Shown: one piece after another, positions 3,190 through 35,900 of the stretch
Layout of the letters: each line of letters opens with the position of its first letter
How positions within the stretch are numbered: the first letter of the stretch is position 1
Assembly: GCA_001938485.1 (NCBI GenBank)
Contig: MQRK01220026.1
Span: 15,576 to 64,776, forward strand
DNA: 49,201 nucleotides
Direction: 5' to 3'
From: Girardia tigrina
Taxonomy: Eukaryota
Notes under the pieces: generated by a model
What the model saw: only the letters and a program-made list of their open reading frames with translations
What the model was told of the DNA's origin: nothing
Databases searched by the model: none
Position numbers and translations under genes: made by a program

Positions 3190-4020
3190 GAGATAATACA
3201 AATTGTGACACTGGCTAGACAGTTTCTAGACATTTGAATGTTTCACTTTTTCGATATTCTATTTTCATGTCAAGAGTCTTGAGTTTCAAGACCACTCAGA
3301 AAATTTATCCATGTTTGAAACTGTGGTGTAATAGGGTTTTTCGTAGTCATCATAAAAGTGATACCTTTATGATTCATTCGTAACAAAAATCTTTTCCCAT
3401 ACAAAGAATGTTTAAAATGTTGCATGAAATAATAAATTGCAAGCAGTTCTTTCATTATTATATAATATCCAAGTTCGTGTTTATTCAATTTATGGGAACC
3501 GCTCATATTGTATCAAAACTTGTATTTGTATCGAGTATGAAGTCTATGACCAAATCAGGGTATGCCAAAATTAGTGTCTTAATCATTCTCTCTTTTAATT
3601 TTTGAAAAGCTTCATCACATTCTTCAGTCAAAATCAGTTTTTTATCTTTGTTCTTACCTCATAAGCCTTCTAAAACTTTTGCATATCTAGCGTAATCCTT
3701 TATGAATTTCCTGTAGTAATTCGTCAAACCCAAAAAGCTTCTTAAATGTTTGATACAGAACGGGTTTTAAAATTTTCTAATCGCATCAATCTTTCTTTTA
3801 TTTGTCTCATTACCTTCTTTGCTTATGACATATCCTAAAAATTTAGTTTTTTTCAACTAGGAATTGACATTTCTCTGGATTTATTCTCAAGCTGGATTCT
3901 TTAATTTTCTCAAATACTTTATGTACTCTTTGAAGATGTTCTTCTCAATCTTTTGCAAAAATTAAAATATCATCCAAATATACGACTGCTTCTTTCCAAT
4001 TCCAATCTCCCAGAACTTTC
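3190..4020 (-). mobile_element. Gypsy pol remnant (RT C-terminal half plus RNase H)
   Basis: YLDDILIF, INPEKCQF, FLGYVIS, LRSFLGLTNYYRKFIKDYA, KELLAIYYFMQHFKH; frameshifted. Confidence 0.85.
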
Positions 4021-4049
4021 CCTATTAATTCTTGAATTATCTATACAAA

Positions 4050-7171: not shown

Positions 7172-7283
7172 GTCAAACCGCAGTTGGGTACGTCAGATCT
7201 CGTTCGATCTCCGAAGTTAAGCAACCAACGACCAAGTTAGTACTTATTTTAGTAACCGATAGGGAAATCGCGCGGCCATTGAC
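7172..7283 (+). ncRNA. Divergent 5S rRNA-derived sequence (SINE3 head or 5S pseudogene)
   Basis: GATCTCGTTCGATCTCCGAAGTTAAGCA...GTTAGTACTT...ACCG.TAGGGAA matches the 5S core. Helix II pairing GTTGG/CCAAC is kept, the helix I 5' strand is eroded, and there is no oligo-T terminator. Confidence 0.75.
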
Positions 7284-7607
7284 TACAGGTCAGGTCAGGC
7301 AATCTGTCTGCTACAGGTACCATGTAAACCTGTAATACATGTCCCATGGTTGAACAGTTGGCGACTAAAGCGGCTCCCTCACCCAGAGCAACCTGTGTGA
7401 AGAGGTGTGTGGACACCTAGCAGGATAAAAAACAAAACCTAGCAAAGGGCGGACGAGCTCCTTGGAGCCAACGGTCATCCATACCTGGAGAGGAGATAGG
7501 TGCCACCAGGTTTCTTGCCTACTGAGACATTCAAAAAATATGCAAACCCAAGCCATATACTTGTGCATAATTGAGTGCACCCACGGCCCAACGGCTATGG
7601 TACCTAC
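7172..7607 (+). mobile_element. Candidate 5S-derived SINE (SINE3) with a GC-richer body
   Basis: The 5S head runs directly into about 320 nt of non-coding, GC-richer sequence within an AT-rich background. Confidence 0.5.
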
Positions 7608-7840: not shown

Positions 7841-8602
7841 ACAATCACAACCAATTTATTAAAAGTAATTTATTTTTGTCCAATGACTTTTGGCTAATTA
7901 ATTTTTTTATTGGGTTTTAAGTTTGTTTGAAACTTTAATTGTAGTATTTCCAAGGTTCAACCAAACCTTGATTAAGTACAATATGATGAGTGACGGTTTA
8001 GACAGATAATAATATATGTATTTGAACCAAATTTTCGTACTTTTCAATATATTATTGTATATTTTATGCATCCGTAGTCTATAGTTGACACAGTGTCAAT
8101 GACACTTATTGAATTTGATCAAATCTCATTAAAATACAGTTATTATAGCTTATTTTTAAAATGTTTTAGATATCATACATCCATTGTTATATAACATTTA
8201 ACTTATTAATTATTTTTATGTAGAATTCATATTTTAGTAGTTTTGTGAGTTTTGAAAATTTACTTGAAATGGAAAATATCAAAATCTGTAAAAATAATTA
8301 CAGTAATGATTATAATTTTAAAGATAGCATTAATCGGAATTTTCGTTTTTAAGGGGTATATACTCAGTTTTCTTTACTAAGAAAATCGGGTCTTCACTGA
8401 CTTGTATAATATTTAATCGCAAAAACATTATTAAAAGGAATCTTGATGGAAGTTTCCTTGCCCATGGTTTTATGATAATTTCATGACTTTGGCGCACTCT
8501 TAAAATTTTTGAATATTTAAAATGAGAAAATATCTAAAATCAAAAGTTTTTGAAAATAATTATAATTAAAAATATTAAAAAGTGAACGCCATTTTTCACA
8601 AT

Positions 8603-8656
8603 TTATTTTCGTAATTAATTTCGGCGGATTACCCGCCATCTTCAGACTAAATTAAC
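8603..8656 (-). ncRNA. Minimal type I hammerhead ribozyme in PLE pLTR, intact core
   Basis: GUUAAUUUAGU-CUGAAGA-U-GGCGG(GUAAU)CCGCC-GAA-AUUAAU-U-ACGAAAAUAA: core, stem II, palindromic stem III and imperfect stem I. Confidence 0.75.
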
Positions 8657-9052
8657 ACTGGCTTTTTGCAGCTTATATATGAGAAAGGTGATTATGCAAT
8701 CAATCATGAATGCCCATGAAAGTTTAAATAAATTAACAAGTTTATTAAATAAGAATGGATGGTCAAAATCATTTATCGAAAAATTAACTCATCAAACTTT
8801 AGATAAAATATTAAATGAGTCAAATAGTAATAATAAAAATCTTAATAATACGATTCCTCAAACCATTTCCCCCTAATACAAATTATAACCCACTTGAATC
8901 AAGGTACATCTTATCGATTCCTTATTCAGAGGATTTTAAACATTTAAAATCATCAATTTTGAAAAGTTTGATCCCAAATACCATGAATCTAAAAATTATT
9001 TCCCAATCACATAAAATTCGTGATATGTTCAGTAATAAATCTCCCACTCCTC

Positions 9053-9400
9053 NNNNNNNNNNNNNNNNNNNNNNNNNNNNNNNNNNNNNNNNNNNNNNNN
9101 NNNNNNNNNNNNNNNNNNNNNNNNNNNNNNNNNNNNNNNNNNNNNNNNNNNNNNNNNNNNNNNNNNNNNNNNNNNNNNNNNNNNNNNNNNNNNNNNNNNN
9201 NNNNNNNNNNNNNNNNNNNNNNNNNNNNNNNNNNNNNNNNNNNNNNNNNNNNNNNNNNNNNNNNNNNNNNNNNNNNNNNNNNNNNNNNNNNNNNNNNNNN
9301 NNNNNNNNNNNNNNNNNNNNNNNNNNNNNNNNNNNNNNNNNNNNNNNNNNNNNNNNNNNNNNNNNNNNNNNNNNNNNNNNNNNNNNNNNNNNNNNNNNNN
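9053..9400. other. Assembly gap (others at 14880-14929 and 18226-18559)
   Basis: N runs. Confidence 1.
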
Positions 9401-9427
9401 CTCATATATAAGCTGCAAAAAGCCAGT

Positions 9428-9481
9428 GTTAATTTAGTTTGAAGATGGCGGGTAATCCGCCGAAATTAATTACGAAAATAA
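9428..9481 (+). ncRNA. Second hammerhead copy with a C3-to-U change (UUGAAGA)
   Basis: Identical to the inverted copy except tttgaaga versus tctgaaga. Confidence 0.6.
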
Positions 9482-9597
9482 ATTGTGAAAAATGGCGTTC
9501 ACTTTTTAATAATGAATATAAATTGCCATTATTTTTTAAATTACTTAATTAAAAATATCTCTAATTAATTTAGAAAAAAAATAAGTTTTGTGTTTTA

Positions 9598-10100
9598 ATG
9601 AATTCTTTTCTTGACCAAGAACCCGACATTGCGACCATAGCTAGCAGGTTGGAACAATTGATTTCGAGACTCCTACCAGAAAGATACAGGAGACAAGATA
9701 ACATCGAAAGTTTTATAGTGGCTTGTTTTAAAGTAGCAAAAATACCAGAAAATATCCAAAAAATATTGGTAATTGGTTTATTATCATACGAGCTTCAGCC
9801 AGTATATGAGAGCGTATCAGCAGAAATTAAAGGATACGAAGCTCGATTGAGAGAGGCTTTTCGGAAGAAAAGCACGTTAAAAGAAGATTTAGAAGAGGCG
9901 ATAAACTTCGAAAGGTCAGAAGAATCTGTCGAGGAGTATTTTACAAAGGCAAGGAAGCTAGCAGAAAAACTGGCAAAACATAAATGGACAGTATTAGAAA
10001 TTGAAAGGTACCTTCTGATTCACGGTTCAAAAGATAGTGACGTAAAGAAAGAAATCAGATTCAGAGAAGTGAAAGAAATAACATAGGTGAAGGATGTCAA
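9598..10100 (+). mobile_element. Gypsy 5' fragment: LTR end, degenerate PBS and gag N-terminal domain
   Basis: ...GACA|TTGCGACC, then a gag-like ORF (PERYRRQDNIESFI...ESVEEYF) similar to the gag ORFs at 19436 and 25720. Confidence 0.7.
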
Positions 10101-10368: not shown

Positions 10369-13300
10369 GTAGTTATATTTAATGATTTATATTTTTATTT
10401 CAAGATTATTCATTAAAGTATTCATGAAGATAGAGAAGCATTAGAAGATGAAATACAAAACAATTTGAAGAAAAGATCAATTAAAATTACTTATATAGTC
10501 ATGTTTTTTACTAGTGTATCCTATTCGATACAAATGCCGTCCATATGGCCTTACATGAATATTGTATCATATATTTTTTATTCTCTTTCAATTTTATATC
10601 AAAACTTAGATTAATCCATCATATTCGAAAGAATTCTTGGGTTGGGTGGTGGCAGCTTATAGTATTGGCCAGTTGGTCGCTTGTCCAGTCTTCTCGTATG
10701 CATCTGGAAAATCTGGACATTTTAGAATAGCTTTAATTATTTCTTCTTTATTGGCCATAGGCGGAAATTATCTTTATGCAATAATCAGTGATCTCAATGA
10801 AACGACGGTAAGAAAATTATTGTGTCAAACAGTTTCAGTAATCTAAACATCAAAACATTTTTATCATTTGATTTATGTTCTGAAGTTGCAACATGAAACT
10901 CTTTTACCGTTTAAATTTTTTGAAAGAGTAAAATATCATTCTTTTTCATTTGTATTTGGTGTGTCTGAAAAGTAATGAAACTCCCCTTATCCCACTTACA
11001 AGACTGACAGTTTCCAGTAATGCAATTTTTTCATACGAAATAGTTCCATTGGCTCGAATGACATCTTTGCAATGTGTATACAATCGTTCACGCTCAATGC
11101 GTCGGAACAGCTGCAATGACTCCTCCTGCATCTCTTCTTTGGAGTGGAAGTCCGTCTTTCTTAGGTCTTTTTCAGGTGCTTGAACAACTAGAGATCACAT
11201 TGACTCAATTATGGACTGTAAGGTGACTGACGGATCAGCTTGATCTGCCTTTGTTCAAAGTATTCCCTGATGTGTACAGCTGCATGAGGATACGCATTGT
11301 CATGTTGCCATCAGAGCTCATGCACCAGAATTTTTCTTATCCAGTCTTTCGAGCAACCAACATATTCTACTAACACCTCAATTAATGCTTTCAATTCTCA
11401 TCTGCCAGTTGCTTAACTTAAGCAATATTCTCATCTACTGTTGATGTTGAAGGCCTTCCACTCTTTGGTTGGTCACACAGAGATGTTCGTGAACCTTTAG
11501 AGAAATCAGATGGTAGATCAGTCATCTGTGTTTCTTATAGCTGCTCATACACTTCTGTAGCTGTACGTTCACGTTGTTGTTCAATAAAAGCATATGCACG
11601 AAAGTGCTCTTTGTTCAGCTTCATTTGTAACAGTCGTTGCACTAAGACAAAGTATACTACCAATGATGCTTTATATGTAATTACAGTTTCGATCGTGCCT
11701 TACTAGATTCTGTTGTACTCGAAGAAAATGAGTTCATCAATGAACTCATTTTCCCATCTTTCATGAAATTCTGACAAACAGATCATTGGGATAACCCTTG
11801 TTTGAATATTTATGTCACATTGTACTTTCTTATCCCAAACAGTTAATTTTACACATTGATGTATGATAAGCGTCAAATGGTACAATGATGTGTGCCCTAC
11901 ACTAAAGAACGACTTTAAGTTGTTCTGAAAGTAAGGATTGATTTTTTATTATCATTTTTAATATTAAAATGTTTTATATTTCTCTTATTGGAAGACGTTT
12001 TTTCATATTTCTTTTTATTAAAAACTTATTATAAATTTCATTTAAGACAATTATTTTTTTTTCATTTAAATACTAGAAAAGTACAGCTAGAAAATTGAAA
12101 AAAATGCATATCCTGTGGTTTTTATGACATTGGATAGGACACTGTTTACAAAATGGTTCTTTGCCTTTAAGAAAGGAAATATAAATTTTCAAAATGCCGA
12201 AATATGTTGTCAACCTTGGAGCACTGATGACCAAAAAATTAACTACAATATGGCTGATGAATATGTTTCAGATCTCCATTTAGTACCGTACACAATCATT
12301 TAGTCAAGCTTGTTTTCGCTATAAGATTTGATATTTTAATACATCACTAATTATGAAAAAAAGTGATTTCAGAGCGAACATTTGCATGAATTTCTTTGAA
12401 TAAAAGAAACAAAAAACAATTGCTGAAACAGCTCCTACTTGATGATGATAAGTGGGCTTTATATCGGTGTGGTACTGGAATTAAACACTTCCGAAGATAT
12501 ATATTTCCTCTGTGGAAAGCTGGTTTGCTGGTTCGTATATATGACATTTGGCCTTTTCGTATTGAAAGATGGTTCGCTTTCGATGCGACATTGATCCTTG
12601 GAGGTGCTAATTATGTATGGAAATATAACTGTGAGCATTGAAAGTTATTTTAGGAGACACTTAATAAATACTTAGAGAGTAAGATTTGGAGACAGAGTCT
12701 AAGAAAATAACTGACGAAGAATGTTGAAGTATTTTAAGAGTATATTTCAACTTGAATTTTAAGATAAGTGGTCATGTTGATGTAGTAGAAAAATGATTTG
12801 AACTGATGAAATAAACTCTCATCATAGAATAAAACTTGAATCCTAATCTCCGGTGTCCAATGTCGATATTTGCAACAGAATGCCAAAAGGTCGTGGAGAT
12901 TATTTCTTAGGAGCAGAAGTTTCCACATTTATATAAGGTTGAACTCATCGTAGAATGGCCTAAAGGAAGGTGCGAGAAGGAACCTAAGCGCTTATTTTCT
13001 TGACAGACCCCTTGGGATGGAGGTAGAATATAAAATAATCTTGACGGCAAATGTAAATAAGAAAATTAAAATATTTAGGAGACAATTTTCAATATATTTT
13101 GTTTGTCGATTAACCGTTTCAAATTGAACTGAATTTTGTTCAGGTTTATATAATTAATTTTAAACTGAAAATTAAAAATTTCAAATAGAGATTGATGTTT
13201 ATTGGGTTCTTGATCAAAAGACGTTGTCATGAACACAAAACTTTATTTCTACCACAATTTGGGTTTTTTAAACAAATATTTTCGAGGAACTTTTGCACTT

Positions 13301-16300
13301 TCTTTTTACACAGACCATTATAAATAAGAATTGATATAAATATAAATAAGGTTATTGTATTTTTTTCGAATTAAAATTCTATACTTTTTTCTAATAAAAA
13401 ATTATAAAGTGAATTAAAATTTTGTCACAAAGATTTTGTTTCGTCTTTTATTAAATTTCAATTTTATTGTACCTTGAAATTTACCTGTTTCTCAATTAAA
13501 TTTCCCAATTCTATACAATAGCATTTTTCATTTCGTTTTCATAATAAATTTAAAAATTACTTTGGATTTACACTACCGTACAAATTAGTTGGGACACTTC
13601 GTTTTTCGGTGAAAACTCAGCAACCATCAATCTGATTTTAATGAAATCAACAACCAAGGTGCTAATTAAGTAGAATATTATACTCACAACGTTTGATTAA
13701 GATATCGTTAACACAACGAAAGATTCGACCTTTTTAATGAAAACAACCCGTGCAAATTACTTGGGACAGCACTTTTCAAGTGCAAAACATTAATGTAAAT
13801 CCATAAATTGACATCTCCTTTGAAAGTTTTCTTGTCAGTGTACACAGATCTTGTATTTTGTCGTGTTTTAAAAAAAATTACGTTGTGTGAAGGTTGACTA
13901 TGTTTGACTGATGTGTGTATATGATGTGTGTATATGAACCAATCACATTCTTCAGCATTGACATCAGTCACCCGCTCTATATAAATGCACAGAATAAAGT
14001 AATGTAATTATTTTCTTCTGAATCAAGTCTGTTTATACTTATACGTCCGTTGCATACCATGGATGTGACTGAAAACATTAGAAAAGTTGCAGTTGAGCAT
14101 CATAGGAGTGGTTTATCCATCAGAAAAATTACAAGAAACCTCAGTCTCCCAAAGTCAACCATTGGAAATATTATCAAACTATATTCAAACACTGGGGAAA
14201 TTTCGTCCAGACGTCGTGGAAGATGTGGTCGTCCTAATTTATTGACCGTAAGGGAGGAGAGGAGTGTCTGCCGAGCCAGCACAATGAATCCTCAAGCCAC
14301 TGCCCGAGAGCTGCAAGATTGTGTTGGTGGAAATGTTGTCCGTGTTTCCGTTGACACAATCAAAAGAACTCTACGAAAGCATGGGAAACTCGCCTACAGG
14401 CCTATGAAGAGTCCTTTTCTCACCCCTCCCATCAAAAGGCTGTGCGCGAGCAATGGTGTCGTCAATATCAGCACTGGACAGCTGAAAATTGGCGAAAAGT
14501 AAGCTAAAAAGCAGTATAATCGTAAATAAAGACTCCAAAATTAACATTATTTGGTATTTTTATGTTTATTTCCATTAGGTTTATTTCTCGGATGAAACGT
14601 ACGTGGATGTCGGTGTTGCTCAGTCTCGATTTGTCCACCGTACATCAGATGAAATGATTCGCGACGAACATACGAGGACTCATCGACCGTTCGTCCAAAG
14701 AGTCCTCTTCTGGGGATGCTTTTCCGCCGCTGCTCCAGGCCCTTTGATCAACATTCACGTCACTATGAAGAGTGGTAATTACATTCAGACTGTACAGGAT
14801 CACATGCTACCCCACATTCAAGCTCAGTACCCGGATGGCAGTGGCATATTCCAACAGGATAATGCTCCCTGCCACAAGTNNNNNNNNNNNNNNNNNNNNN
14901 NNNNNNNNNNNNNNNNNNNNNNNNNNNNNCCAATAACATCAACATTTTAGATTGGCCACCTTATTCACCTGATCTCAACCCCATAGAGAATCTGTGGGGT
15001 ATCATAAAAAATAAGGTACGTCGTTTTCCACTTCTTGATCGTCAGTCTCTGGTGGCCGAAATGTTGAAGCAATGGCAAGATGTTTCTACTGTAACAATTT
15101 GTGAAAAACTAGCAACGTCAATGCCTGCACGCATTGCAGAGTGCATTACAAATCATGGTGGACACACACACTATTAAATTTGGAAGAAGAAACTCTTGTA
15201 AATGTTTTATTTCCGATGGATAAATATACAGTACAGTGTAGAATTGTCAAAAAATGGATGGTGTCCGAAGTATTTTGCATGGGGTATTTTCATTAAAAAG
15301 GTCGAATCTTTCGTTGTGTTAAAGATATCTTAACCAAACGTTGTGAGTATAATATTCTACTTAATTAGCACCTTGGTTGTTTATTTCATTAAAATCAGAT
15401 TGATGGTTGCTGAGTTTTCACTGAAAAACGAAGTGTCCAAACTAATTTGCACGGTAATGTAATAATATTTGAAAAAAGAATTTAAAACCGCAATTTTGTT
15501 TAATTTAACATTTTTTAAATTACCCCTTTTTTACATAAAAAATAAAATTATATTTCCATTAGTAATTACGTTTTCCAAAATAAAATGAAAACCGCAGCTT
15601 CATTTAAATCGATTTAATTGTTTTACAATTATATTTTGATTCCAATTTAAATTTCCAAAAAATAAAATTATAGTGACATTTTTAATTTACTTCGATTTAA
15701 TCGTGTAAAATAAAAGAAAGTTACCAAAAAATATTTTAGTTTACTTTCATTTCGCAAATAAAATATTAAACTTTATATTACTTTTGATTTTATTTAACTT
15801 AAATATTTTCATCAAATTTGAAATTAACTTTTCTACTTTATTTCATTAATAAATCTTTTAATAAACCTACCGTAAAATTTATTTTATTTCTTACATTAAT
15901 TAATTTTTTACATTAAATTTCTGAAAATCATATTTTAACATATCTATAACAATATTTTACGGAATGTAATTGTTTAATTATTAATTTGATAAGATTGTAA
16001 TTTCAAAAATTTTATGAACTCAACAATGTTAATATCAACTCAAATATTTATTGTTCTAATAATAAAATGGATCGAATTATGATTTGATTTTGTATTAATA
16101 AGATAATATTTTAAGTCCGAAACAGTGGCACTCCTTGTTTCAAGAGCAGTTATCGGTATTTCTGGAGCTAATATAGCTTCAATACGACTCTTTCTAACAT
16201 TGGCGACAACTGAAGAAGAAAGACTTGTTCCCATGTCTATTTTGAGTGCTTGTCAAGGATTAGGTTTTATTATCGGTCCAGGTATTGTTCATTCGATTTT

Positions 16301-19300
16301 AATATTATATTACTTTGTACAGGTCTTCAAGCAGCTTTTGTACCGATTGGATATCCTGGAATTTTAGAAATAAGCTTTATTAGAATAAATATGTATACCG
16401 CGTCAGGATTCTTTGGTGTTATATCCAGTAATTCAATTATTATTTAATTCAATTATTATCCTACATTTTTTGCATATTATTTTCAAATTTGAGCTATATT
16501 TAGTATATTACACTAAAACATTTGGAATTCTTCTTATTGGGGTGTTACAAAAGTTTCCAAAAATGTTAGGTATTATACCTAAATATTGTTTTTCCAAAAT
16601 ATTATACTTTCAACAAAGACAAATCTTAAAGAAATATATGCTTAATTGATTATATTTTGAGTCACCATTAACCCAACTAATACATTAAAAACATAAAGTT
16701 ATGTCATAATTATAATTTATTTTATTTACAGTATTTATTTCATATTTCCAGATTTCATAATTCTGCTAGTTCTAGCTATATGGTTCAGTGATAAATTTTT
16801 AAGAAAGTCAACAATTGAAACTAAAAGTAAGATTGTATTTTCTGAATGTTTTGTTTTTTAAAGGTCCTAGATAAATTTCACAAAAATGTTTTAGAAAATT
16901 TAATATACTTATTTGCTTTATGTGAGGATTTTAGGAAACTCTTAAATTAACTCTTTAAATCAAAGAGAAAATAAACATTTTAAGTTAATATTAAATTATA
17001 AAAGTAAAAAATAGAAATTTATTGTAAAATAAGTAGAGACAATAAAATGTGATATAAAGTTACAATATTAATAATATTTAAAAATAAATGTTTTAGATAA
17101 AATTTAAAGTAATGAATTTTGTAATTAAATAAATATAAAAAACAAATTAAATTTAAAATAAAATTAGTAAAATAATAGATTTGAAAATGTATTAAATAGA
17201 AGATCTTAAAAATAGTTTAAGAGAATTTAATAAACCTAAAAAAGTAAGTACAATAAGAAAAAAACTAAATATAATAATAAATTTTAAAAATTAATGAAGC
17301 TTAATAAAATTTTTGTTCAAAAGAAAATACAATATTTAAAAAAATTTAAAATTTAATACAAAATTAATACATAAAATATTTGTAAATAGTTTATGTTTAT
17401 AATTTAAATAGTTCTAAATAAAAAAAATTATAAAATTAAATACCATACGAAATTTCGAAAATAATAAATTTAAAAATATTTATATTTTATAATTATTTTG
17501 ATATTATTGATTTGTGCAAGAGAAATGCAGAAATTTACGTAGGCAAAACTTGTTTATATAATTGTTGTTTTTAATCAAGTTTCAATAAATGTCTTTATCT
17601 GAATTATCGTCAGAATGCATTCCCGAACCTTTTACTTTATCATATTCTTTGAATTATTATTGTAAGGGAAATCAATTATAACTCATTAATTAACCTATTT
17701 CTACTATATTTAAATAAATTTATTTATAAATGGATCCAAATACTGTTACATTAAAAACTCCTGATAATTCATTTGTTTAAATAATATATAGGGTTGGTAG
17801 TTTTTTGAATTTAATCAATTTTTGATTGTCAATTTCCTAATTGTTAATTTAATTATTGGCAATGTCCGACAATACTTACAATTATTAACTATTATTTTTC
17901 AAATTAAAATTAATAGTTTACATTACTATATTAGGTTGGTCGAAAAATAATGGCGGTTTTTGAGCTTTATACTTTGTTTATCTACTTTGATATGTATATA
18001 AGTTTAAATGCATTAGTGTTAGATATTATTTGAAATCTTATGCCTAGCTGTATATTCCTATAGCCATTATTAACATATTGCTGTTATTTTTTAGAATATT
18101 TACGGCACTAAATTAATAATGGAAAAAATTAAAATTCGAGCAATTTTCTTGTACGAATTTAAACTGGGTCGTAAAGCAGCAGAAACGGCTCGCAATATCA
18201 ATAAAGCGTTTGGCAAGGGAACAGCNNNNNNNNNNNNNNNNNNNNNNNNNNNNNNNNNNNNNNNNNNNNNNNNNNNNNNNNNNNNNNNNNNNNNNNNNNN
18301 NNNNNNNNNNNNNNNNNNNNNNNNNNNNNNNNNNNNNNNNNNNNNNNNNNNNNNNNNNNNNNNNNNNNNNNNNNNNNNNNNNNNNNNNNNNNNNNNNNNN
18401 NNNNNNNNNNNNNNNNNNNNNNNNNNNNNNNNNNNNNNNNNNNNNNNNNNNNNNNNNNNNNNNNNNNNNNNNNNNNNNNNNNNNNNNNNNNNNNNNNNNN
18501 NNNNNNNNNNNNNNNNNNNNNNNNNNNNNNNNNNNNNNNNNNNNNNNNNNNNNNNNNNNTCTTGATCGTATTGTTACCTGTGATGAGAAATGGATCCTGT
18601 ATGATAACCGACGTCGATCTGCACAGTGGTTGGACAAAGATGAAGTACCGAAACACTTTCCAAAATCGAAACTAACACTCCGTAAGGTTATGGTGACAGT
18701 TTTTTGGTGTGATGCTGGAATCATCCACTATAGTTTCTTGAATCCAGGTGAAACAATCACAGCGGAGAGGTACTGTCATGAAATTGATGAAATGCATAAA
18801 AAATTGAAAAGCCTTTGTCCGGGATTGGTCAATCGAAAAAGTCCCATCCTTCTTCATGATAACGCTAGACCTCATATTTCAAAAGTGACTCTTCAAAAGC
18901 TTAATGAGTTGGGCTATGAAACCCTGCCTCATCCACCATATTCACCAGACCTCTCGCCAGCGGACTTCTACTTTTTCAGGAATTTGTGCAACTTCCTACG
19001 TGAAAAAATTTTCAAAAACCAAAATGATGCTCAAAATGCCTTCCAAGCATTCGTCGCTTCGAGAATTGATGAATTTTATGCTGATGGAATAAAACAACTT
19101 GTTTCTCGTTGGCAAAAATGTATTGATGCCAACGGTTCATATTTTGATTAAGAAACTTTTGTTTCTGTGAATTTGTACGTCTTTGAAGTTTGTGTAATAA
19201 AATTGATTAATAAACTTTACATTAAAAAAAGGCTTATTGAAATTCTATATATATATATATATTATATACATATTTATAATACGGTTAAATTTAAAAAATT

Positions 19301-20919
19301 GTAAAATAAAAACTCATAAAAAAAGAACTTTGTTTAAATATTCAAAAATTTAAAAAGCAACATTTTTTAATAGAATAAATTTTATTTATGGACTCCAAAT
19401 TTGATGAGGCTTACGTTACAAACAGCTTTTCTAACATGGCGACCAAAGCCTCGGAGATCCTCCTATCACGATCTGTCCCATATCGATTCAAGAAAGGAGG
19501 AGATGTTGAAATTTTCTTCTCCAAATGCCGTAGATTCTTCGAGTTAACGCAGACCAAAGAAAATGTAAAAACTATTTTGGTGAAAACTCTGCTGGACGAC
19601 GAGGCCATCAAAGATTATGAGGAAGTAGATGACGGCGTGAAGAATTTCGAAGATCGATTAGGACAAGCATTCTCCAAGAAGAGTTCCCTATTTGAAGACC
19701 TGGCAGAAATTCTGAAATACCAGAGATGTTCCGAATCAGTTGAAGACTACTTTAAGACTGGCAAAATTGGCCAAGAAATTAGCCGCATACAATTGGGACG
19801 AAGCCGAATTAGATAAGGAGATACAATTGCACTGTTCCAGTGATAAAGAGATCTTAAAGGAAGTTGAGATGAGAGATTTAAATGAAATTGCGGATATAAA
19901 AAACGATGACAAAAATGGACAAGATACAAAAGAAATATGATCATGTTAATGCAGTGAAAGACGATTGGATCCAGGTACAATCCCGAAGAAACAAGACACA
20001 ATCTGGAATTAAAGGATTTGAAACGACATTAAATAACAACAACAAGAGAAACCCACAATCGACAGTGAGAAATTTTGAAGCGGAAGATTTACAATTTGGA
20101 AGGCGTATAGTTCTGGTTCTGCAATTTAATGGAACACATAAGCAGGAACTGCAGCAAAAGATTGCCCGTCACCTGCCATACTTGCGGAACACAGGGCCAT
20201 ATCAGAAAAAATTGTCCGAATCTGAAATGTAACCGATGTGCAGCCAATGGCCATAGGAGTGAAGAATGCTATACGAATATGACGAGAAGACATTGGGCAA
20301 ATAATCAAAGAGAAACGAGAAGACCTGATGTCACTGCCACAGTTGGAAGAACTTGGAACAACAACAACTCAAACCGAGGAGATAACCGACAATTGCCGAC
20401 TCAAAACAGACCCAACCAGCCAAGATACTACGAGGAGACCGACTACGAAAGAGGAGTAGGGAGAGGTAAAAAAATAGCATCGATGGAGATGGATGACGGT
20501 GAATGCAGAGACTTAGAGCAAGGAACCCCAAACGAGAGAGGCCCGACCGTAGAGGAGTCGGTCGGAGCTTTACAGTAAACAATTTTGAATTTAACCGTAA
20601 TCGTAAAAGTAGTTTATTTTCTATCTATAATAATATTGTTAAAGGGTTAATTTCTGAAGAATTATTGTGTTGTTTAAAAATATTTATAGCTGATTAGTTT
20701 TGTCACGTAACTAAGGATTTTGAAATTTTTATATATTTTGTTATAAGGGCTTTAAAAATTTATTTCTTATTTATATATTTTATTACAAAAATTTTTTAGA
20801 ATAATAATAAATAATTTTAAATACACTTTTGTTTATTGTAACCAAATTTATAATGGCTTTAAAAATTATTTATTTAAAAAAATTCAGCTGCAAAAAATTT
20901 CAGAGTCAAAATATATTTT

Positions 20920-23900: not shown

Positions 23901-26900
23901 ATTCCAATCCACAATACAAGTATACATATTTTTATTTTTCATTAATCAAAATGATTTTTTGTTTCAAAATATGAAATTTGTCAATTATTATTTCGTGGAA
24001 TTAATTAATGGCAATGAGAATAATATATTATATCAAAAAATAAATTTATTGTGTATAAAATACTGTAAATGACTGTTTAAATAAATAAATGTAAAGTATT
24101 GGGCAGAAATTTAATAAATTTTCTGGAAACAGTCTCATATGATGTATTAATAATTAGAGTTTTTAATCCAGTATTCCTGCAATCATTTCGGGTTCTAAAT
24201 CTTTTACTATAAAAAAGTCCACTGTTTTCTGTATTCTTTCAATCTTCATCTTTAGTTGTACTATTCCGTAATTTACTAGTTCCGAATCGTTAGCATGATG
24301 TATACGTCTTTTTGTCTCCTTTATTTTGATATTTTCCATATTTTTGAGTATGTCTATTTTAATTAAATTGACTCGTGCTCCCGTATTCAATAGACATCGT
24401 ACATTTTTATTCTTTATTTGAAATTCTATACTAGGCCTTCCTTTCAGTTCTTTGTATTCTTTTTTAAACTTTAATATTTTCATTATCTCTGTGCTTCTTT
24501 CTTCATCTTTTTCTGTGATCAAACTGTCACATTTCTCATTGTGTATTTCGTTTTCACCATCTAATATACACAATTCCTCAGGAATATTTTCAACAGCATC
24601 CCATACACAACATACGTCATCATATAAAATTCATATAGTCAAACATACACATACATTCGTTTCTTAGTGAAATGTACTGATCACTTCTCCCTGTGACCGT
24701 GCCTCCTCGTTTCCCTGTTCGTCTCAGAAATTTTTCTTGTTTGTAATATTTTCTTTTCTTGATAGACTTCCTCTTTTATTCGATCTTTCCGACATTCTTT
24801 CCCACTCATCATCGGAGTCTTCTAATTCTTCTACTTGGTCTCTTCTATTCTTATATCCAATCCGACCTCAGTACTGTGTGTTTGCGTATTCTTTTCGTTC
24901 ATTTCTTCTATTCCTTGTATCTTCTCTTCCAGATTGTTCGCGTTCTCTAAATCTGTTAGGATGCTCACTGTGTGTTCTTACATTGTGTTCTTACATGCCC
25001 TTTCTTATTACAACGGTTGCATTTAACATTTGGACATTCCTGTCTCACATATCCTTCTTCATGGCAGGCCCGACATATGATCCTTCTCGCATTAAAATTT
25101 CTTCTTGGTTCTTCGATCTTTCTCTCTTCGTATCTTGGTCTCGGTCTTCTTGTTCTATATTCTACTTTCTTCCATTCTTTATTTAACTTTGTCGTGTATG
25201 CGTCCACTCTTATATTCCTGTCTTTCAGCTCAAATTCGTAAATTTTCTCTTGGATATTTTTTATATCTTCTACTTTTGTGGCATTTCTCAGAGTCATTTA
25301 TCTTCTTACTTCTTTATCTTCGATGGCATTGGCGCACGCTAGATCTGAAAGTTCCTTTTTTCCTAGTTTTTTTCTCAACTAGTTTTTCCACTAGTTCATC
25401 AATCTTTTTAAATACTTCTGATGGATTTTTATCCCCGATTCTAATCTCTATAAGCTCTTTCATTATCTCTAAAATATTTTTCTCTTTTGAGAATGCACTT
25501 CTCATTCTTGTTTCCCAGCTGCCTCCTTGTGGTTTCTCATATTTGTTTATCGCTTCTGGGGTCATGAATGCTGAACTATTATTGCTTTTCTTTCTTCCTT
25601 AAATTCCAAAATCTTTGAATATCTCTCAAAGCTTATTAGGAATTCTTCTAATTTTGCTTCTGACCCATCGAATGTCTCCAGTCCCTTGATAATTGGTGTC
25701 ACGTGGTGGTGTGTCGCCATATTAAGAACATTTAAACAAGTCTCGTTTAAATCTTTATTGCAATTACATTAAATTAGAGTCATTAAGACTCTCAGAAAGT
25801 CTTTCATCATTTGCCATCGTTCTAATTGGTTTTCTTATTTCTGTTTTTAATCATGATTATTCGAACATTTTTTCTAAATTATTTTTTTAATATATTTAAC
25901 CTCTAAAAATATTAATTAAAAATATTAATTTTTACCATTTTTCGATAAATTCAAAAATAATAAAAATGACATCAAATTATTAAAAATGCATTTTATTTGA
26001 ATTTTACTAAAAATTATTAAACTTAATTTTAATTCTGAAATTAAAGATATGAACTTATAAAATGATTATTTTAATTATGGTCGAATAGTCAATCACTTTA
26101 AATTTAATAAAAAATACCAATTTCCATCTGGGTGGGAGAATCACCATTCTAAATTCAACATACTTAAATCAACATACAACATCAATACATTTACACATTC
26201 AAACAATTTAAAATATTCCTCACATACTTCTTTTCGTTAAGTTCAGTGATATTTGTCCCCGGAAAAATTACTAAATATGAAATATTAACATTTGATTAAA
26301 GTATTATTATTTTGCTGTTCAAATTTAAAAATAAAAAACTCCGGGACCCAATGATTTAAAGCATATTAACCAATTTATACAATAAAAAGTAATGGATCAT
26401 ATAGATGTGGTCTCACGGACCGCAATTTTTTTACTGAATTATTTTTTAAATAATTTTTCATAAGTAAATTTTTGTGGAACGATTTTTAATTTTTCTTGCA
26501 CAAACCAATAATATTTAAATAATTATAAATACATAAAAATATGTTAACTTTATTATTTTTGAAATTTTAGATTATATTTAATTTTGAATTTGAAAACTAT
26601 TATAAACATAAACTTCCTTCAAATATTTTATATTATTTTTTGTATTTAATTATATATTGTTTTTAAATATTGTATCTCTTTTGAATGGTTGTTTTTTAAA
26701 TTCATTAAAATTTAATATTTATTATGATATTTATTTTTTTTGTATTTACTTTTATGGTTCAATAAATTCTATTAAAATATTTTCCATGTTTGATATTTAA
26801 TTCGTTTTCAAATCTATTTTATTTATTAATTTGATTATTTTAAATTCAATTCGTTTTTTAATCCATTTAATTACGAGTTTTATTATTTCAAATTTTATCT

Positions 26901-29900
26901 AAAACGTTTTTAAATATAATTAATATTGAAACTTTATACCGCATTTTATCGTCTTTACTTTTTTAACAATAAATTTCTATTTTTTACTTTTATAATTAAA
27001 TATTAATTTAAAATTTTTTTTATCTTTAATTCAAAAGAGACATCAGAAATCCTCACAATGCTCTATTTTCTTGTTTGTGTACATATTGTCCTTCCAGTAT
27101 CCTATAAGAATATTCAAACCTTGATTTGCTCTTTCAAAATTGGATGAAAAATTGCATACTTGGGGAAGTAGGCCTTTTATCATATACTCTAAATTTTTCC
27201 GAACTGTTAAGAACACCAATATTGGTTTTCACATATTTATTTTCATCACAATTCGAATTGTCTTTTGGACAATTCTCAACCAAGCTGTCATAATTTTCCA
27301 TCTCACTAAATTGATAAATTTTTGTTAATGTTTTGTTAATAAACAATTATTAGAACAATTTTTCATTTTAAATGATTTTCAGATATTATTTTTAAAATTC
27401 TACTTTTATAATTTCGGTAATAAATTTAACTAAATGAAGACGACATTTAAAAAAATGAGAAAAACACGCTTGATTTCAAAATTTTATTTTTACAAAAAAG
27501 TAAATATTTAAACAAACTTAAAAATTTAATAATTTAATTATTAATTTGTTTTATAAGTAGAAATGTGTTTCTACATAACTCCCCCTCACATTTGAAGGTC
27601 TTGTAGGCCGAAGAAGGGTTTAAGTCTATCTACTGAAATGCGCTTGATATTTTCATCGACTTTCACTTCAAATGTTTTCAAATCCTTGCTTCGGTTGATA
27701 ACCTTGAACGGTCCTTCATATGGATTTTGAAGACATCTTTTAGTTTCACGTCTGATCCACACATATTCACAGCTGTATAGATCCTGTGGAATAAAAATTG
27801 TTTGATGTATTGGTCTTCGGTAACGAACTCTGTTGTAATACTTTATTGCTTTCTCAACAGTCGAGTGTGTTGGAGTTTCATGATTATACGTTTCAATAAT
27901 TAGGTCACCTGGAATGTTGGCGGCGCTTCCGAATACCATTTGCGAAGGTGTCACAGGCTCATCGCTTCTTACTAAATTTCTAATGCCTAGCATGACTAAA
28001 GGTAGATCCTTTACCCAAGTGCTCTCTGCATTGTTCGCATGTACTCGGAGGACATTTTTCATTGTGCGATGGAATCTTTCCACTTTCCCATTGCATTGTG
28101 GGTGTTAGGCCGTAGTGCGTCGATGTTCGATGCCATATTTTTCACATAGCTTGTTGAATGTTTCGGAGCAGAATTGGGTCCCCTGATCGGAAATAATGAT
28201 TTCAGGACATCCATATCGAGAGATCCATTCTCTTTCGAATGTTTCGACTATCTTTGTTGCCGAGATCTCTTTAATTGGTATGGCTTCTGTCCATGATGTC
28301 TGCCTGTCAATTAGACTTAAAATGAATCTTTTACCTTCTATTTGCGGGAGAGGACCAACAATATCAATGTGGACCACTTTGAATCGTCCACGGTCTGGAA
28401 ATGTCCCAAGTGGAGATTTTGTATGTTTGTTTATTTTGGCTTTTTGGCATTCATGGCAGCCTCGTACCCATCGCCTGATTTCAGACCTCATTTTTGACCA
28501 CACATATCGTTCTGCTAGAAGACTGGTTGTTGTTTTGACTCCTGGATGAGTTATATTGTGCAGTCTCAAGAATTCTTTGAATCTGTATTTGTTTGGCAAA
28601 ATAATTCTGCCCTTTTTTGTTGTATCGATTAACATTCCATTTTTGGTTTGTATGTTCAAAGATTTTGCTCTGAGGTTTCGAAGACTTGGATCAGTGACTT
28701 GCTCTCTGGCTAATTCTTGAGTTGATATTCGATTCAAATTAGATATCTCATGATCTGGTCTTGATGGGTAGTCTGCAAGGGGTGCTGAACTAATTTCGCT
28801 AAAGAACTAATTTCGCTAAAGAATTATTTTCGCTAAAGAATTAATTTTGTTTTAACTTTATGTTTTTTTAAGATTTAATAAAATTTAAAACGTTGTTATG
28901 GTAGATCAAACCTCATCTTCAAATATTGGATATGAAGTTGTGGAGGGGTTGCGAAAGAATTCCAAACTGTATCGGGCAAATTATTTTTTGTATTATAAGA
29001 ATAAAATGTACAAAAATAGAATTGCATTAAGGTGTCTAATGTATCCAACTACAGACTGCAGTGGTAAAGCCTCTATTACCATTGATACCAATGAAATTAT
29101 TATTGAAACCTGCCATAATCACGAACCTGAACTATATGATGAACCAATGAGAGCACTGAAGAAGAAGCTAAAAGATAAGTCCGAAACAATATCAGAAAGT
29201 TCAAGACAGATTTTTGATAATGTTTGTCGGGTGTACTCAGAAGAAGTTGCCACGAGAATTTCTTTCCTAATGGTTTCCCGAGGAATGACCAAAAGAAAAC
29301 ATCTGGTCTTCCCTAAGATTCCAGAAGATGTGTCTGGTTATGTTAAATCCATAAAAGAAAATACAATACTTAACCATCATTATAAGGGACCAATATTTGA
29401 TGGCGATGAAGTCATTGGAATCTTTTTCTTTTCAATTGAGATGGTTGATAATCTCCCAAATTTTGATAGCATCTGTTATGATGGGACATTTTTTATTGTG
29501 CCAAACATATTTTCTCAGTTGTTCATTATTTCAGTTCGACATGGTCAAAGAATGTTTCCAACGTTTTTTGACTTGATGAAATCTAGGCAATATCAACATT
29601 ACAAGTTGATTATTCAGAAAATAAAAGATGTGGTACCTCAATTTTGCCTTCATTGGCAATTGGTGACTTTGAAAAAGCTCCAATCAGAGCATTTCGTGAA
29701 ATATTTTCACAGATTCCCTGTCAAGGCTGCTATTTTCATTTTAAGCAGGTTATTGTATGGAAACTTGGCGAACTTGGCTTGAAATATTTTTTTTCATTCG
29801 CAATAAAGAATTCAACCAGCTGATAAATTTGATAATGGCGCTTGGATTTTTGCCCTCTTATAAAATACGTACATTATTTAGTACATTGAAACAAACAAGG

Positions 29901-32900
29901 ATTGGAACTCGACAACAACAAACAAAAATAGCCTCTTTTCATCTCTACTTTGAAAGGATATGGCTAATTGATCTCGCGATAATCAATTGGTTCAATTCCA
30001 CGATCTTGACCAACAATTTCTCCGAGACCTTCAACAAGAAACTAAAGATGAAATTTGGGGTTCATCGTGGCAATCCATGGGTTTTCACTGAAACTCTGAG
30101 CAACATTATTGATGACATGAGACTAGAAAGTTTGCGTATAAGAAATGGACTTGAAACTACTAGACAGCGTGATCCTAATATTCTATCAAATCTCTCTTCC
30201 GAGCTCAAAGATAGTTTAATAAATAATGAAATCACTCCATTCCAATTTCTTTGCAGATACTTGAACATTTTGGAGATTTAACCTGCAATTCAATCAATAT
30301 TTTAGACCAGCAGTGGTCTTTAAGACGATCAATTTTGTGTCGAAAAGAAAGATATTTTGTAAACAAAAATATTTGGACTGAAATATATTTTTCGTTCATA
30401 ATATAGCGTTATTTTTATATACAGAGTTATGTTATAAAAGATCGTTCAAGTTATATTCACTTGTTGTTTAGTCAATGCATTATTTGTGTATATTTTTAAT
30501 ATTTCCTAATTAATTTTGTTGTAAAAATAGAATTACATTATTATTCAAATTATTAATCACTTTAACAGCAATTATTTATTTTATTTATTTGTGTAATTTG
30601 AAGGATTAATTTACTTTTTCTACAATTTTACTTTAATTTTTTTACAATTTTTAATTAATTAATTTTTTCTACAATATCGGGCTTCATTAATAATAAACAA
30701 AATAATATCAGCATTAGTGAAATTAGTCCACTAACGAAATTATTTCTTTAGCGAAATTAGTTCTTTAACGAAATTCGTTCATTAGCGAAATTAGTTCCGT
30801 AACCCTTTATTAACGGTCACGGTTGTAAACCGAAATATGCAGTGAACAAGTACGAACCAACCTTAATTTCTATCTCAAAAAATGAAAAAGCACACAACAA
30901 GCCGATCGTTAATTGCGAGATACTGTAAAAGAAGGTAAATGTTATTTTATTTGATATGCTTTATTTAATACTGGAACCGATTTGAATGTAATTAGTGAAG
31001 AAAACTGGGAAAAAATAAAGAATGATAACCCTAATTTGGAAATTTATCCTAGTAAGTCTATGATTAAGTGCGCAAATGGAAACATTGAAAAAGTCATTGG
31101 TAAAATAAAATTGGAAGTGACTATAGGTCCAACAAAAACAAAACCCGTATTTAGTGTAATGAGAGGTATATTTCCACATGTGTTTATCGACATTAGAAGT
31201 ATGAACCACTACAACATTTGTGTAAATCCGAATAAAAATGCGATTTTCATTAATAATATCGAGGTACCATTTATTTCTAGGATCATGACACCATCGGCTT
31301 TAAACTAACGTTATCCGCGTTAGTGAGCCGTAATGTGGATTACTATAGAGAAAAGGCTCGAGGAGGTTTTTTTGAAATTTGATGTCATACTAGCGAATAA
31401 TGTTTGCTTAGAAGGAGATGGTGAATATATGGTGCAAGGAATGGCGGTGGATGAGAAAAGCGTGCCTCAAAACAAGGTAAATGCTTCATTTTTATTTGTT
31501 GGAGACAAACAGAATTTATCGAAACGAGAACTTTTGATCGGTGATGGTCTGGTAGAAGTCGTAGACGGAATATTGTGGATAAGAATATTAATGGAAAAAG
31601 GGGAGTAAAGAAAATACACACTGGGATGCGAATGGGTCACATAGAAAAGTTAACGGAGATCGAAGCTTTTGACAAAATGAATATGATATAAAATGTTCAA
31701 GACGAAATGCAGGGAAGAGACATCGTAAAATCAATAATGGAAAAAACACGATTCATGGAGAATGAAGAAATAATAGGATCTCTGGAATAAATTTTGAAAA
31801 AAACGAGTTAACGTATTCAGTACGAATAAATTTGATCTAGGTATAATTAACGTCATCGAACATACAATCGATACCGGTGATTGCAGACCGATTGCATTTA
31901 AACCAAGGCGGATACCACAAGGTGTAGAAGCTAATGTAAATCAGACGATTGATGAAATGTTAAAAGCAGGAGTTATTAGACCCAGTTAATCGCCATGGAA
32001 CTTTCCAATCGTGGTGGTACAGAAAAAAGATGGTGGTATCAGGTTATGCGTGGATTATTGGGCATTGAATGCCAAGACAACCAGACCAATATTTCCGATT
32101 CCATCAACAAATGAACTTTTCGACACTGTTGGGAATGCAGATTACTTCACTGTATTAGATTTAAGCAGTGGGTATCATCAAGTACCGGTCAGAGATGTAG
32201 ATATCGAGAAAACTGCATTTAGTACAAGATATGGACAATTTGAATTTACTCGAATGCCGTTCGGTCTATGTGCCGCCCCGGTCACATTTCAGAGGATGCA
32301 TAAAATTTTACAACGGATAGAAGAAGCTGGGCTAAAATTATCACCAACAAAATGTAAATTCTTGCAACGAGAAGGCCATATTATCAACAAGGCTGGAATC
32401 AGGACAGATCCCGATAAAATAGAATCTATTCATAAATGGAATTTACCAAATTGTAAGAAAGAGCTGCAAGAATTTTTATGTCTTTGTAATTATTATCGGA
32501 CTTTTATAAAAGATTTTGCGACAATAGCCGAGCCACTATATGCAATGCTGAGAAAAACCTGTGATCTCGGATTGACGGAAGAAAAAATTGCAGGGTTTAC
32601 GAGACTTAAAACGGCACTCATGTCCCCGCCAGTATTGAAACTTCCTTGTCCAGATGGTAAATACATCTTGGACACAGATGCTTCTCAAAGTAGTATAGGT
32701 GCCATGTTATCACAAATTCAGGAAGGAAAAGAGCATGTCATTGCTTATGCGTCTAGAAACCTTACGAAAAGTCAAAGACTGTACTGTATAACTCGTAAAG
32801 AACCACTTGCAAACTATGTATTTGTTTTGAAATTTAAACATTATCTTTTAGGAGTTGAATTCGAAGTTCGTACCGATCACCAAGCGTTAAAATGGTTGTT

Positions 32901-35900
32901 GAATTGGAGATCTCCAAACACCTCGCAATATTGTATCTTGAAAGCAGAATTAGAGATATACAACATGACTGTCACATTCCGGAAAGGTAAAGAGCATACG
33001 AATGCAGACGCTGTGTCCAGATTACCACCATGTGAACAATGTTTATTACCACACGAGGATCCAAAGAAGAAACGAAACAACAAGGTATTAAGTGACAAAG
33101 AATGGAATTTAGAAGAGTCGATAACGGGCAATGAATAAGAGATAATTTTGTGGCAAATTGCTGAGGTCGAAGATAACGAAATTAATATTATTAAACAGCT
33201 ACTTCCTCGGAAAGATGAAACATTGATACCGGAAATCATCCAAACTGGATCAAAAGATATTAAGCATTTGTGGGATATACGAGAAAATATCAGGATAAGA
33301 GGTGATAAATATCACTGAAGAATGATAAATATCACTTGTTCGTACCAAGAGAAGCGCAGGAACAGCTGATAAAAGCAACACACAAATTGCTGGGACACGT
33401 TGGAATCGAGAAGACCGCAACGGCAATGTCGAGTGATTATTACTGGCGAAATTTGCATGACGATGTTCGAGAAATTATTAGTAAATGTAATATATGTGCT
33501 AGATATAAAGATGTAAATGAAAGATTTCGAGCACCTTTACAGAAACTGAAAACCAATGAACCGTTTGAATTACTCGTTATTGAATTACGGGACCATTTAA
33601 AGAAACAAAAGACGGCTACCGATTTATATAAGGAATAATAGATTATTACTCGAAGTATATCTGTCTTGTTCCAATGGAATCTATATCAGCAGCAGCAATA
33701 TCAAAAGCAATTTGGATTCATTGGATATCAAAATTCTGAATACCAAAATAAATTCATAGTGACTGTGGATCGACCTTTAAATCAGCAATAATCGCAGATT
33801 TATACAAACTATTGAACATAAAGAAATCATTTTCCTCACCCTATTAACCTCAAGGTGATGGATTAATAGAACGATTATTTAGGAGTGTCAAACCAATGAT
33901 TGGAGCAATAATGGAAGAAGGGAAACATGAAGACTGGTCCGAAACAATACCTTTCGTTGAATTTGGGATCCGGAACTCGATACAGAAGACAACCGGTTTT
34001 ACTCCTTTTGAGATACTGTATTTTTGAGATATGTATTATTTGGATTTATACCAGAACTACCCTTCTTAAAGCAACCTGAGGAAGTAACATTTACAAAATA
34101 CAGTGATTATATGAAGAATCTCAAAGCAAAACTTCAAATAACCAAGGATATAATATTGCAACGAGGTAAGGAAAAAGGTGATAAAGAAAAAAATCGATAC
34201 AATAAACACCGTTTGAATAAGAAGTTAAAAGTTGGAGATATCGTGCTTGTGAAATCGAGACAGACATCTGATTTTGGAAAGAAATTTATCGGTCCTTTCA
34301 AGATAGAAGAAATTATAAATGATTGGACTTATGTATTATTTAACGAAGCAGATAATAGAAGAATTCAAATGAATTATAATCAAATTAAATTAGTATCACC
34401 AAGTTACGAGGAAGACAGCAGTGATATCAGTGCTTTTAGTAAAAAATCTATTACTTGTCGAACATCTGCAACAACAGGAAATAAAAATCAAGAAGCAGAC
34501 GAAAGAAGATTCCCAATCAGATCAACACGAGGAAAAATTCCAATCAGGTTCCAGTGATAACGTCTAGAAAGGAGGGATGTGAGATAATTAATATAAGTTG
34601 TTTTAATAATATCGAAAAGTGTGTTATTTTTAAAATATAGTTATTATTGATCGATTATGTTCTTATTAATTATTTATAATATAACATGTAATGATCATCT
34701 TCGGTGTAGTATATATTACCTCAATTTAGCATATAATACTACTGGATGTGATATTGCAGTTCAACCGTGGTGCAGTCACGTACCGGCCTTGGAATTTTGG
34801 CAGTATATTTTGTCGATATCTTTTTTTACTTTGGGATATCCAACAGCAAATCTTTTATCATATGTTATTTTTTCTCGACTAATTGATCCATCGTCTCAGG
34901 TATAATTCTTTTTAACTTTATTTTTTATCATGTTGTGTTAATTTTTATATTTAGTATTTATTAGTTACGGTAAAATTATCCGTCGTAATTAATATAAAAT
35001 ATTTTTTTAATACAAACAAATTCAAAAAATTTTTTAACTTCCTTTTAATAATCAATTCCCCGATATTTATTTTAATTTTCAAATTCTGATTTTTTTTTTG
35101 AAAACTCAAACTTAAAAATAATATTTAAATCGATTTTGATTTTTATTCTAACTAATATTTACTTCATAATTATAAAAAAAACATTTTATTCCAAAACTTT
35201 AAAAACCTTTTAATTTTGAATCAATTAAAACATTGAATATTAATTATTGAAAGCTCGAATTATTATTTTCAAAAATTATTTACTTTTTAAATTATAATTT
35301 ATTACAATTATATTATGAAACTTCATTTAAAAGTTCAATTAAAACTTTTTGGCAAATTTTAAAATTATATTTTAAAATTCACTCATCTTTAAATTCTTAA
35401 AATATTGTCAACGAAAAGAAAGTTAACTAACTCATCATATTCCCCATTTTTAAGAATTTCTTCAGTTTTTTCACATTTCAATCCAAAATTTATCTATTTT
35501 CATTTCTAATTTTGTATCTTTTGTTATGTATCTTCTCAATCACTTTGTATGGTGTAGTGCAGAGGTGCTCATGTTTAACGTTTAAACGTTTTCTTTTTTA
35601 GGATGTTTAAACGTTTAGTGATTTTTAAACGAATATGGAATTCTTAAGTTCGTAATTCAAAACTTCACAACATGGGTTATACGTTTTTTGAAACTTTTAT
35701 CAGGCTACTTGATACCTATTACTTTGTTAAGAACACATTATCCCAATTTATTGAGCTTTTTCGTGGGTTTAAAAATGCCAAATATTGAAATAGTGCAATG
35801 TACTTGCACAATTCACCCATGCTTAGCTCTGTTAAATAAAACTGTTTCTTTGTATCATGCGCATTTGACTTTACACAGCTTTAACCCTTAATAACCTAGA

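Follow-up and report, generated by a model that had tools for sequence, protein, structure and literature searches.

The window analyzed here, by which we mean the whole stretch of 49,201 nt, holds fragments of three LTR retrotransposon families, designated A, B, and C, each with a junction at which the LTR meets a tRNA primer site. Direct reading of the window gives an ATG at the junctions of families A and B, in frame with a Gag-like peptide in both, and an ATT at that of family C, a mutated copy with a Gag-like frame. These junctions and their frames had been described in an earlier sequence-only reading and were found as described. Every window copy of these families is both truncated and broken. 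The heptamer TGGCGAC occurs five times in the window, where 1.11 occurrences are expected. Those at 7359, 16201, and 48401 were rejected as primer sites, there being no gag downstream; that at 16201 lies inside an exon-like piece of a host membrane-transporter gene. Neither tRNA genes nor Rfam families were found in the window, nor were the 5' junctions of the decayed retroelement pieces entered in Table 1.

Table 1 Features of the window (positions counted from its first nucleotide)
Feature	Position	Strand	Remarks
Decayed pol piece related to family B	3292..4036		
LTR fragment, sister family of B (~80% identity)	6823..7103	-	Ends AACA, then no primer site
GC-richer stretch	~7190..7290		No Rfam match at gathering score; presumably 5S rRNA-like
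Family C LTR piece, 5' part	8512..8575	+	Parted from the remainder by an insertion with inverted ends
Insertion	8573..9511		111-nt inverted ends and an assembly gap; splits the family C LTR
Family C LTR 3' end	9575..9628	+	Upstream in-frame ATG at 9598-9600, -10 codons; 12/18 distinct copies
Family C junction and mutated primer site	9628..9637	+	ATT (9628-9630) here; ATG in 12/18 copies
Family C gag fragment	9629..10099	+	Truncated
Exon-like pieces of host membrane-transporter gene	~10420..10800 and 16170..16290	+	Taken by us to be MFSD8-like
Element with 204-nt inverted ends	13568..15462		Presumably Tc1-like
Transposase frame	18095..19151		Taken by us to be mariner-like
Family A 5' LTR remnant	19209..19436	+	Full LTR ~300 bp, 5' part absent here; adjoins mariner copy; AATAAA 19374-19379
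Family A upstream in-frame ATG	19388..19390	+	-16 codons from junction; likely (putative) Gag start; 23/27 distinct copies
Family A junction ATG (19436-19438) and primer site	19436..19445	+	9-nt match to tRNA-Arg(ACG) plus CCA
Family A internal region	19437..20639	+	Broken gag with capsid-like part and CCHC knuckles; ends before pol
Family B internal region	24175..25719	-	Broken gag and protease start, truncated
Family B junction ATG (25720-25718) and primer site	25713..25720	-	7-nt contiguous match to tRNA-Arg(ACG)
Family B 5' LTR	25720..26224	-	505 bp, TG...TA ends; AATAAA 40 nt before end
Family B upstream ATG	25815..25817	-	Out of frame in window copy; in frame at -31 codons in most copies
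Decayed integrase	27586..28806	-	
MULE/FLYWCH-like element	28777..30807		17-bp repeats in ends
Decayed Gypsy pol	30955..34557	+	PR-RT-RH-IN
Decayed LINE-like frames	37840..40488	-	

Copies of each family were sampled as the best 30 genomic matches in an AT-rich assembly (1.43 Gb searched) with identical copies removed; for family C the junction was covered in 23 of the 30 loci. Among these matches the junction triplet was ATG in 24 of 27 distinct copies of family A, all 29 of family B, and 12 of 18 of family C. The upstream block common to the copies starts at TGT and spans ~300 bp in A and ~500 bp in B. Its other end, the LTR end, falls exactly on the junction A in both families: 13/22 rows without a primer site in family A (3 of the 22 are identical copies) and 16/29 in family B (with some duplicates among the 29) are solo LTRs bearing a 5-bp target duplication. 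The search with the LTR block alone that gave these rows also gave 3' LTRs preceded by a purine tract in both families; for family C, a single LTR pair carrying a 5-bp duplication (locus L184) fixes the LTR end. LTR and primer site adjoin without a spacer in families A, B, and C. The sequence-only reading was right that these elements have no internal leader and that their primer is a tRNA-Arg.

The elements are Ty3/Gypsy LTR retrotransposons by structure. Full-length copies of A, B, C, and a sister family outside the window, D, have the order gag-PR-RT-RH-IN (in agreement with the Pfam sets of close relatives, of which at least 120 are listed, none with an informative name), with a tRNA primer site after the 5' LTR and a purine tract before the 3' LTR. 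LTR lengths across the four families range from 214 to 580 bp. The LTR termini are TG...CA in A, C, and D and TG...TA in family B, in all solo LTRs seen; several relatives of family B also end their LTRs in TA, with normal 5-bp target duplications. Gene order, CCHC knuckles, 5-bp target duplication, and purine tract are shared with canonical Ty3/Gypsy elements (Metaviridae) as given in the available part of the source (PMC4974528), and the capsid fold here may be Arc/Ty3-like, by weak matches. In contrast, the primer segments of Ty3 are placed by the same partial source at the 5' UTR and in the 3' UTR rather than in gag (PMC4974528), whereas the present elements lack an internal leader, and B and several relatives end in TA.

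The primer was sought in the host tRNA set, as the sequence-only reading had proposed. Host tRNA-Arg(ACG) and tRNA-Arg(TCG) genes both end in GTCG. The complement of tRNA-Arg(ACG) with CCA added matches families A and C over 9 nt and family B over 7 nt. A 13-mer of tRNA-Arg(ACG) has 1434 exact genomic sites versus only 11 for a 14-mer of tRNA-Arg(TCG), and the latter was rejected as primer on these counts. Eleven loci have a family B LTR end followed by a longer tRNA match. Four of the 11, probably one insertion, carry 18 nt and then unrelated DNA; one carries 38 nt, another 73 of 76 nt, and two carry 11-12 nt before other DNA. The remaining three run on into gag, with the frame shifted in every case. 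Such joints are the expected leftover of copying the primer during plus-strand strong-stop synthesis, and thus identify the primer of family B. C-type LTR ends joined to 14 and 18 nt of tRNA complement also exist. The same search gave no extended tRNA tract at family A LTR ends, and the assignment of tRNA-Arg(ACG) to family A is a putative one from the 9-nt match only.

LTR ends joined to tRNA-Arg(ACG) complement were seen at L317-L327, L231, L225, L276, L241, L238, L223, and L287, with tracts of 11-18 nt, 38 nt, or 73 of 76 nt that give way to unrelated DNA or an integrase end. We consider these loci likely to be integrated plus-strand strong-stop products. ARAGORN calls one such LTR/tRNA locus (L201) a tRNA gene with CCA. 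In a sample of 90 of the 1434 tRNA-matching sites, 23 match exactly 18 nt of the tRNA. Among the 66 sampled sites preceded by A, gag is in the junction frame in 26, shifted in 12, and without a gag match in 28. The proposal that the primer site is recopied from the tRNA in each cycle holds in part. The tRNA does overwrite the primer site, as the tRNA-derived tracts show, but not cleanly in every cycle: the match usually extends over 7-9 nt only, a mismatch lies within the first three primer-site bases in some C-type copies (L184, P0001, and P0003), and gag is out of frame in all three family B copies in which a tract precedes it.

The gag frame was then walked upstream from the junction into the LTR. 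Among the best 30 matches per family, an ATG is reached before any stop at -16 codons in 23 of 27 distinct copies of family A, at -31 codons in 25 of 29 of family B (with one at -27), and at -10 codons in 12 of 18 of family C. The three database proteins closest to family C (P0001-P0003) begin at this -10 position. The sequence-only reading had taken the junction ATG for the start codon, with Gag residues 1-3 encoded by the primer site; for A, B, and C this is probably wrong, since most copies offer the upstream in-frame ATG that it had itself named as evidence to the contrary. That the primer site is coding was correct.

This arrangement is not peculiar to the three families. The 90 sampled sites together with A, B, C, and one metagenome element gave 21 hand-defined groups with Gag-like sequence downstream; nine sites without evident gag were left out, as were sites consisting of LTR, tRNA tract, and unrelated or shifted DNA. 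An upstream in-frame ATG was present in 19/21 groups in the gag frame versus 3/42 in the other frames, with 23% in random flanking DNA. As the 21 groups are related, they were collapsed to 10 lineages, at least 8 of which have the ATG (P = 2.5e-4). Five B-type LTR ends of 54-71% identity all keep an ATG at -31 or -32 codons with the frame open, whereas a neutral-tail model gives a 2-6% chance per lineage of keeping an open frame with its ATG. Eight of the 21 groups have gag running over the primer site in another frame, so that the junction reads CTG or an out-of-frame ATG, and 7 of these 8 have an ATG of their own in the LTR. Owing to these groups, the trait common to all is read-through of the primer site, not the junction ATG. 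A metagenome scan returned 79 loci, of which only L328 clearly belongs to the lineage, and its layout is the same.

The Gag proteins carry the same signature. Those of A, B, and C are homologs, at 28-37% identity to the sequence in the first alignment row, and the junction Met is nearly invariant, a conserved anchor of the alignment. Distant Gags came from a 50%-identity library, in which 78 of the 150 matches listed cover the N-terminal part of the capsid and were retained, the other 72 being left out. Twenty of the 78 lack the motif as defined and were not counted, although about half of them show an extension before an M-A-like core. Among the matches listed this leaves 58 representatives with an M-A/S/V-T core, of which 47 have an extension of 3-38 residues and 11 start at the junction; note that these starts are gene-caller choices and that some of the proteins are probably also from Girardia tigrina. 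The extension ends in Asn in 43 of the 47, a residue encoded by the LTR end AAC or AAT. With the sampled groups, these distant Gags bear out the suggestion that the layout is a lineage trait. Extension length varies from 0 to 38 residues, without common sequence. Acidic residues make up 18% of the extensions and F/I/L/Y 20%, versus 8% and 42% in translated LTR DNA, and in composition they look like protein rather than translated AT-rich DNA. In a structure model the extension is of low confidence and non-helical (residues 1-18 have pLDDT <50) and is probably short and disordered. The same model has a helical capsid-like domain, for which the top 11 Foldseek ranks listed are Arc, PNMA2, and Copia capsids (probability 0.85-0.99, none with E <= 0.001). 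CCHC knuckles are present.

The reading that we favor, and hold to be reasonably probable, is that these families form a compact Ty3/Gypsy lineage primed by tRNA-Arg(ACG), in which the gag frame crosses the LTR/primer boundary and Gag would start at an ATG within the LTR (R/U5), 10-31 codons upstream in A, B, and C, to be read through the primer site much as in Ty1. The RNA would start in the LTR and ribosomes would initiate at the R/U5 ATG, giving a Gag that consists of a short extension followed by N-M-A-T, the latter encoded by the LTR end together with the primer site. The junction ATG would be forced by three constraints, namely the terminal A of the LTR, the TGG dictated by the tRNA CCA, and the inherited frame, and so would need no selection of its own. 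The available text of PMC3601003 gives YNYAACA as the general LTR end, and with TGG following, AAC-ATG-G arises without further selection. With a forced junction ATG in reserve as a second start, some families could lose the upstream ATG. An elongating ribosome would presumably not be stopped by a short primer duplex. As a side effect, up to 18 nt of tRNA may be copied into the plus strand over the coding primer site, which would either write M-A-T-T-P-G into Gag or shift the frame and kill the copy.

Several observations stand against an upstream start. The upstream ATG lies downstream of AATAAA in A and C but upstream of it in B; if the RNA begins downstream of this ATG (AATAAA in U3, with a short R), the upstream ATG of B would not be transcribed. 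In Mag A LTRs, according to the available part of the source, the U3/R border is upstream of AATAAA (PMC3601003). Conservation centers on the junction Met, whose context is also the stronger one, with A at -3 and G at +4, whereas the extension is variable in length and the upstream ATGs of A and C mostly have T at -3. Weak context was nevertheless rejected as a case against the upstream ATG, since the obligate LTR ATGs of the other-frame groups are also mostly without A at -3. The upstream ATG is absent in 6 of 18 copies of family C, three of which form one clade (91/89 support), while none of the 18 lacks both ATGs. Finally, family D and 11 of the 58 representatives begin at the junction.

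The same facts can be read as use of both in-frame ATGs by leaky scanning, with a long and a short Gag of which either would suffice, such that the extension could change length or vanish. The weak upstream and strong junction contexts in A and C fit this alternative, as do the family C copies, none without both ATGs, and the short form alone in family D and the 11 representatives. However, the family C pattern is marginal (P = 0.05), the copies being old, related, and not independent. Moreover, out-of-frame ATGs that would intercept ribosomes scanning to the junction lie between the two starts in 24 of 27 copies of A and 29 of 29 of B; with a mean of 3.7 of them in B, scanning to the junction is unlikely there. 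We regard use of both starts as unlikely, though less so than the alternatives that follow.

A main Gag start at the junction ATG in A, B, and C, with primer annealing over it switching the RNA from translation to reverse transcription, seems to us distinctly improbable. The ATG is exact and in frame in most copies, its Met is nearly invariant across the lineage, and predicted primer duplexes of -22 to -29 kcal/mol (calculated for a free 18-mer with the tRNA fold ignored) cover two bases of the junction codon; the layout also appears to be realized in family D. Against these points, upstream in-frame ATGs are conserved far above chance, out-of-frame ATGs intervene in A and B, and the other-frame groups cross the primer site without a usable junction ATG. 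A junction ATG follows automatically from the LTR end and the CCA complement, and the primer site of Ty1, which lies in GAG, is translated nonetheless, in so far as the partial sources go (PMC4974528 and PMC7969010).

Spliced-leader trans-splicing occurs in flatworms, and in two of the other-frame groups the ATG is immediately preceded by a pyrimidine-rich tract and CAG, yet the idea that Gag is made from a processed RNA (with a cis- or trans-spliced leader) or from a non-AUG start, neither genomic ATG being the true one, is very improbable given that no acceptor is evident before the family D junction and, as a weak argument, that the contigs of four RNA runs, aligned to family B, show no intron-like joint near the junction.

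Family D (loci L250, L432-L461, L463, L464, and L473) differs from A, B, and C. Its LTR is 214 bp, with the end fixed by three LTR pairs with 5-bp duplications (3/18 stretches). All 29 distinct copies lack an in-frame upstream ATG, a stop usually lying 12 codons before the junction, and 18 of the 29 have no other ATG anywhere in the LTR. In 24 of 29 copies no in-frame Met occurs within 80 codons downstream of the junction; 28 of 29 retain an intact junction ATG. A search for a splice acceptor before the junction found none evident, with no AG in the last 60 nt. These data make it likely that Gag of family D starts at the junction ATG, and here the layout advanced in the sequence-only reading is probably right. 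A minority of other families without an upstream ATG would likewise initiate at the junction. As an upstream start is absent in D and in about 11 of the 58 representatives, only there would an annealed primer cover the initiation codon. The duplex predicted for D is -29 kcal/mol, again for a free 18-mer with the tRNA fold ignored.

Primer annealing needs the acceptor stem of the tRNA to be opened, normally by Gag, so any primer switch would be a Gag-dependent feedback. In its strongest form the proposal is that in D and about one in five members of the lineage the sole Gag start consists of the LTR terminal A and the first two tRNA-complementary bases, that annealing of tRNA-Arg, driven by Gag, hides the AUG within a duplex of 13 bp and so stops that RNA from being translated (an mRNA-to-genome switch), and that the Gag N terminus is periodically rewritten by a host tRNA. 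This chain is speculative and we rate it as unlikely. For the question of how LTR-element RNA leaves the ribosomes to be packaged and reverse transcribed, these elements would offer a natural comparison, with the primer site inside the coding region in A, B, and C and over the sole start codon in D. If the upstream start is true and the primer has no effect in D, the layout would be a modest structural variant with Ty1 as precedent. Annotation of gag in these elements should run across the LTR boundary. A coding primer site would have a cost, in that tRNA-templated overwriting shifts the gag frame, and overwriting in frame would explain the recurrent M-A-T-T-P(-G) in the Gags.

The closest precedent is Ty1 of Saccharomyces cerevisiae (Ty1/copia). 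Its primer site is inside GAG, according to the available part of PMC4974528, and in Ty1 RNA there are signs of primer annealing in cells and of remodeling by ribosomes, according to that of PMC7969010. As there, the primer site of the present elements lies within the gag frame and one RNA would serve as mRNA and template (PMC4974528 and PMC7969010), and the acceptor-stem match is short, 10 nt in Ty1 as given in the partial sources and 7-18 nt here. The same sources have Ty1 as a copia-type element primed by initiator tRNA-Met, whereas the order here is PR-RT-RH-IN and the primer tRNA-Arg(ACG). Here, moreover, the junction spells an in-frame ATG, apparently the sole start in some families. Neither feature of Ty1/copia membership (IN before RT and an initiator tRNA-Met primer) was found in these elements. 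They share a coding primer site with Ty1 and in this respect seem to function as it does, without being copia elements.

Insect Gypsy elements primed by tRNA-Arg (Mdg1 and one Mag element) also have the primer site adjoining the LTR, as far as the available text of PMC3286476 describes them; a gag start in the LTR or at the junction is not described in that text. The available part of PMC4202319 makes no mention of primer sites or start codons. No description of a Gypsy gag starting at the LTR/primer-site junction was found in the literature searched, which was largely open-access. The feature is real; a coding primer site is already known from Ty1, and the layout is apparently undescribed for Gypsy elements in that literature.

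The other-frame Gypsy-like groups (L217, L222, L245, L219, L244, and relatives) have LTRs of ~85-125 bp where a boundary is visible. The evidence for where these LTRs end consists of common 5' boundaries, terminal inverted bases, and a single LTR end that lacks a primer site; a solo-LTR search for one of the groups matched a flanking repeat instead. In L217 and the others the LTR seems to share its last T with the primer site (AGTTA...TAAC|T), which resembles the one-base overlap of LTR and primer site in the gypsy lineage given in the available text of PMC3286476.
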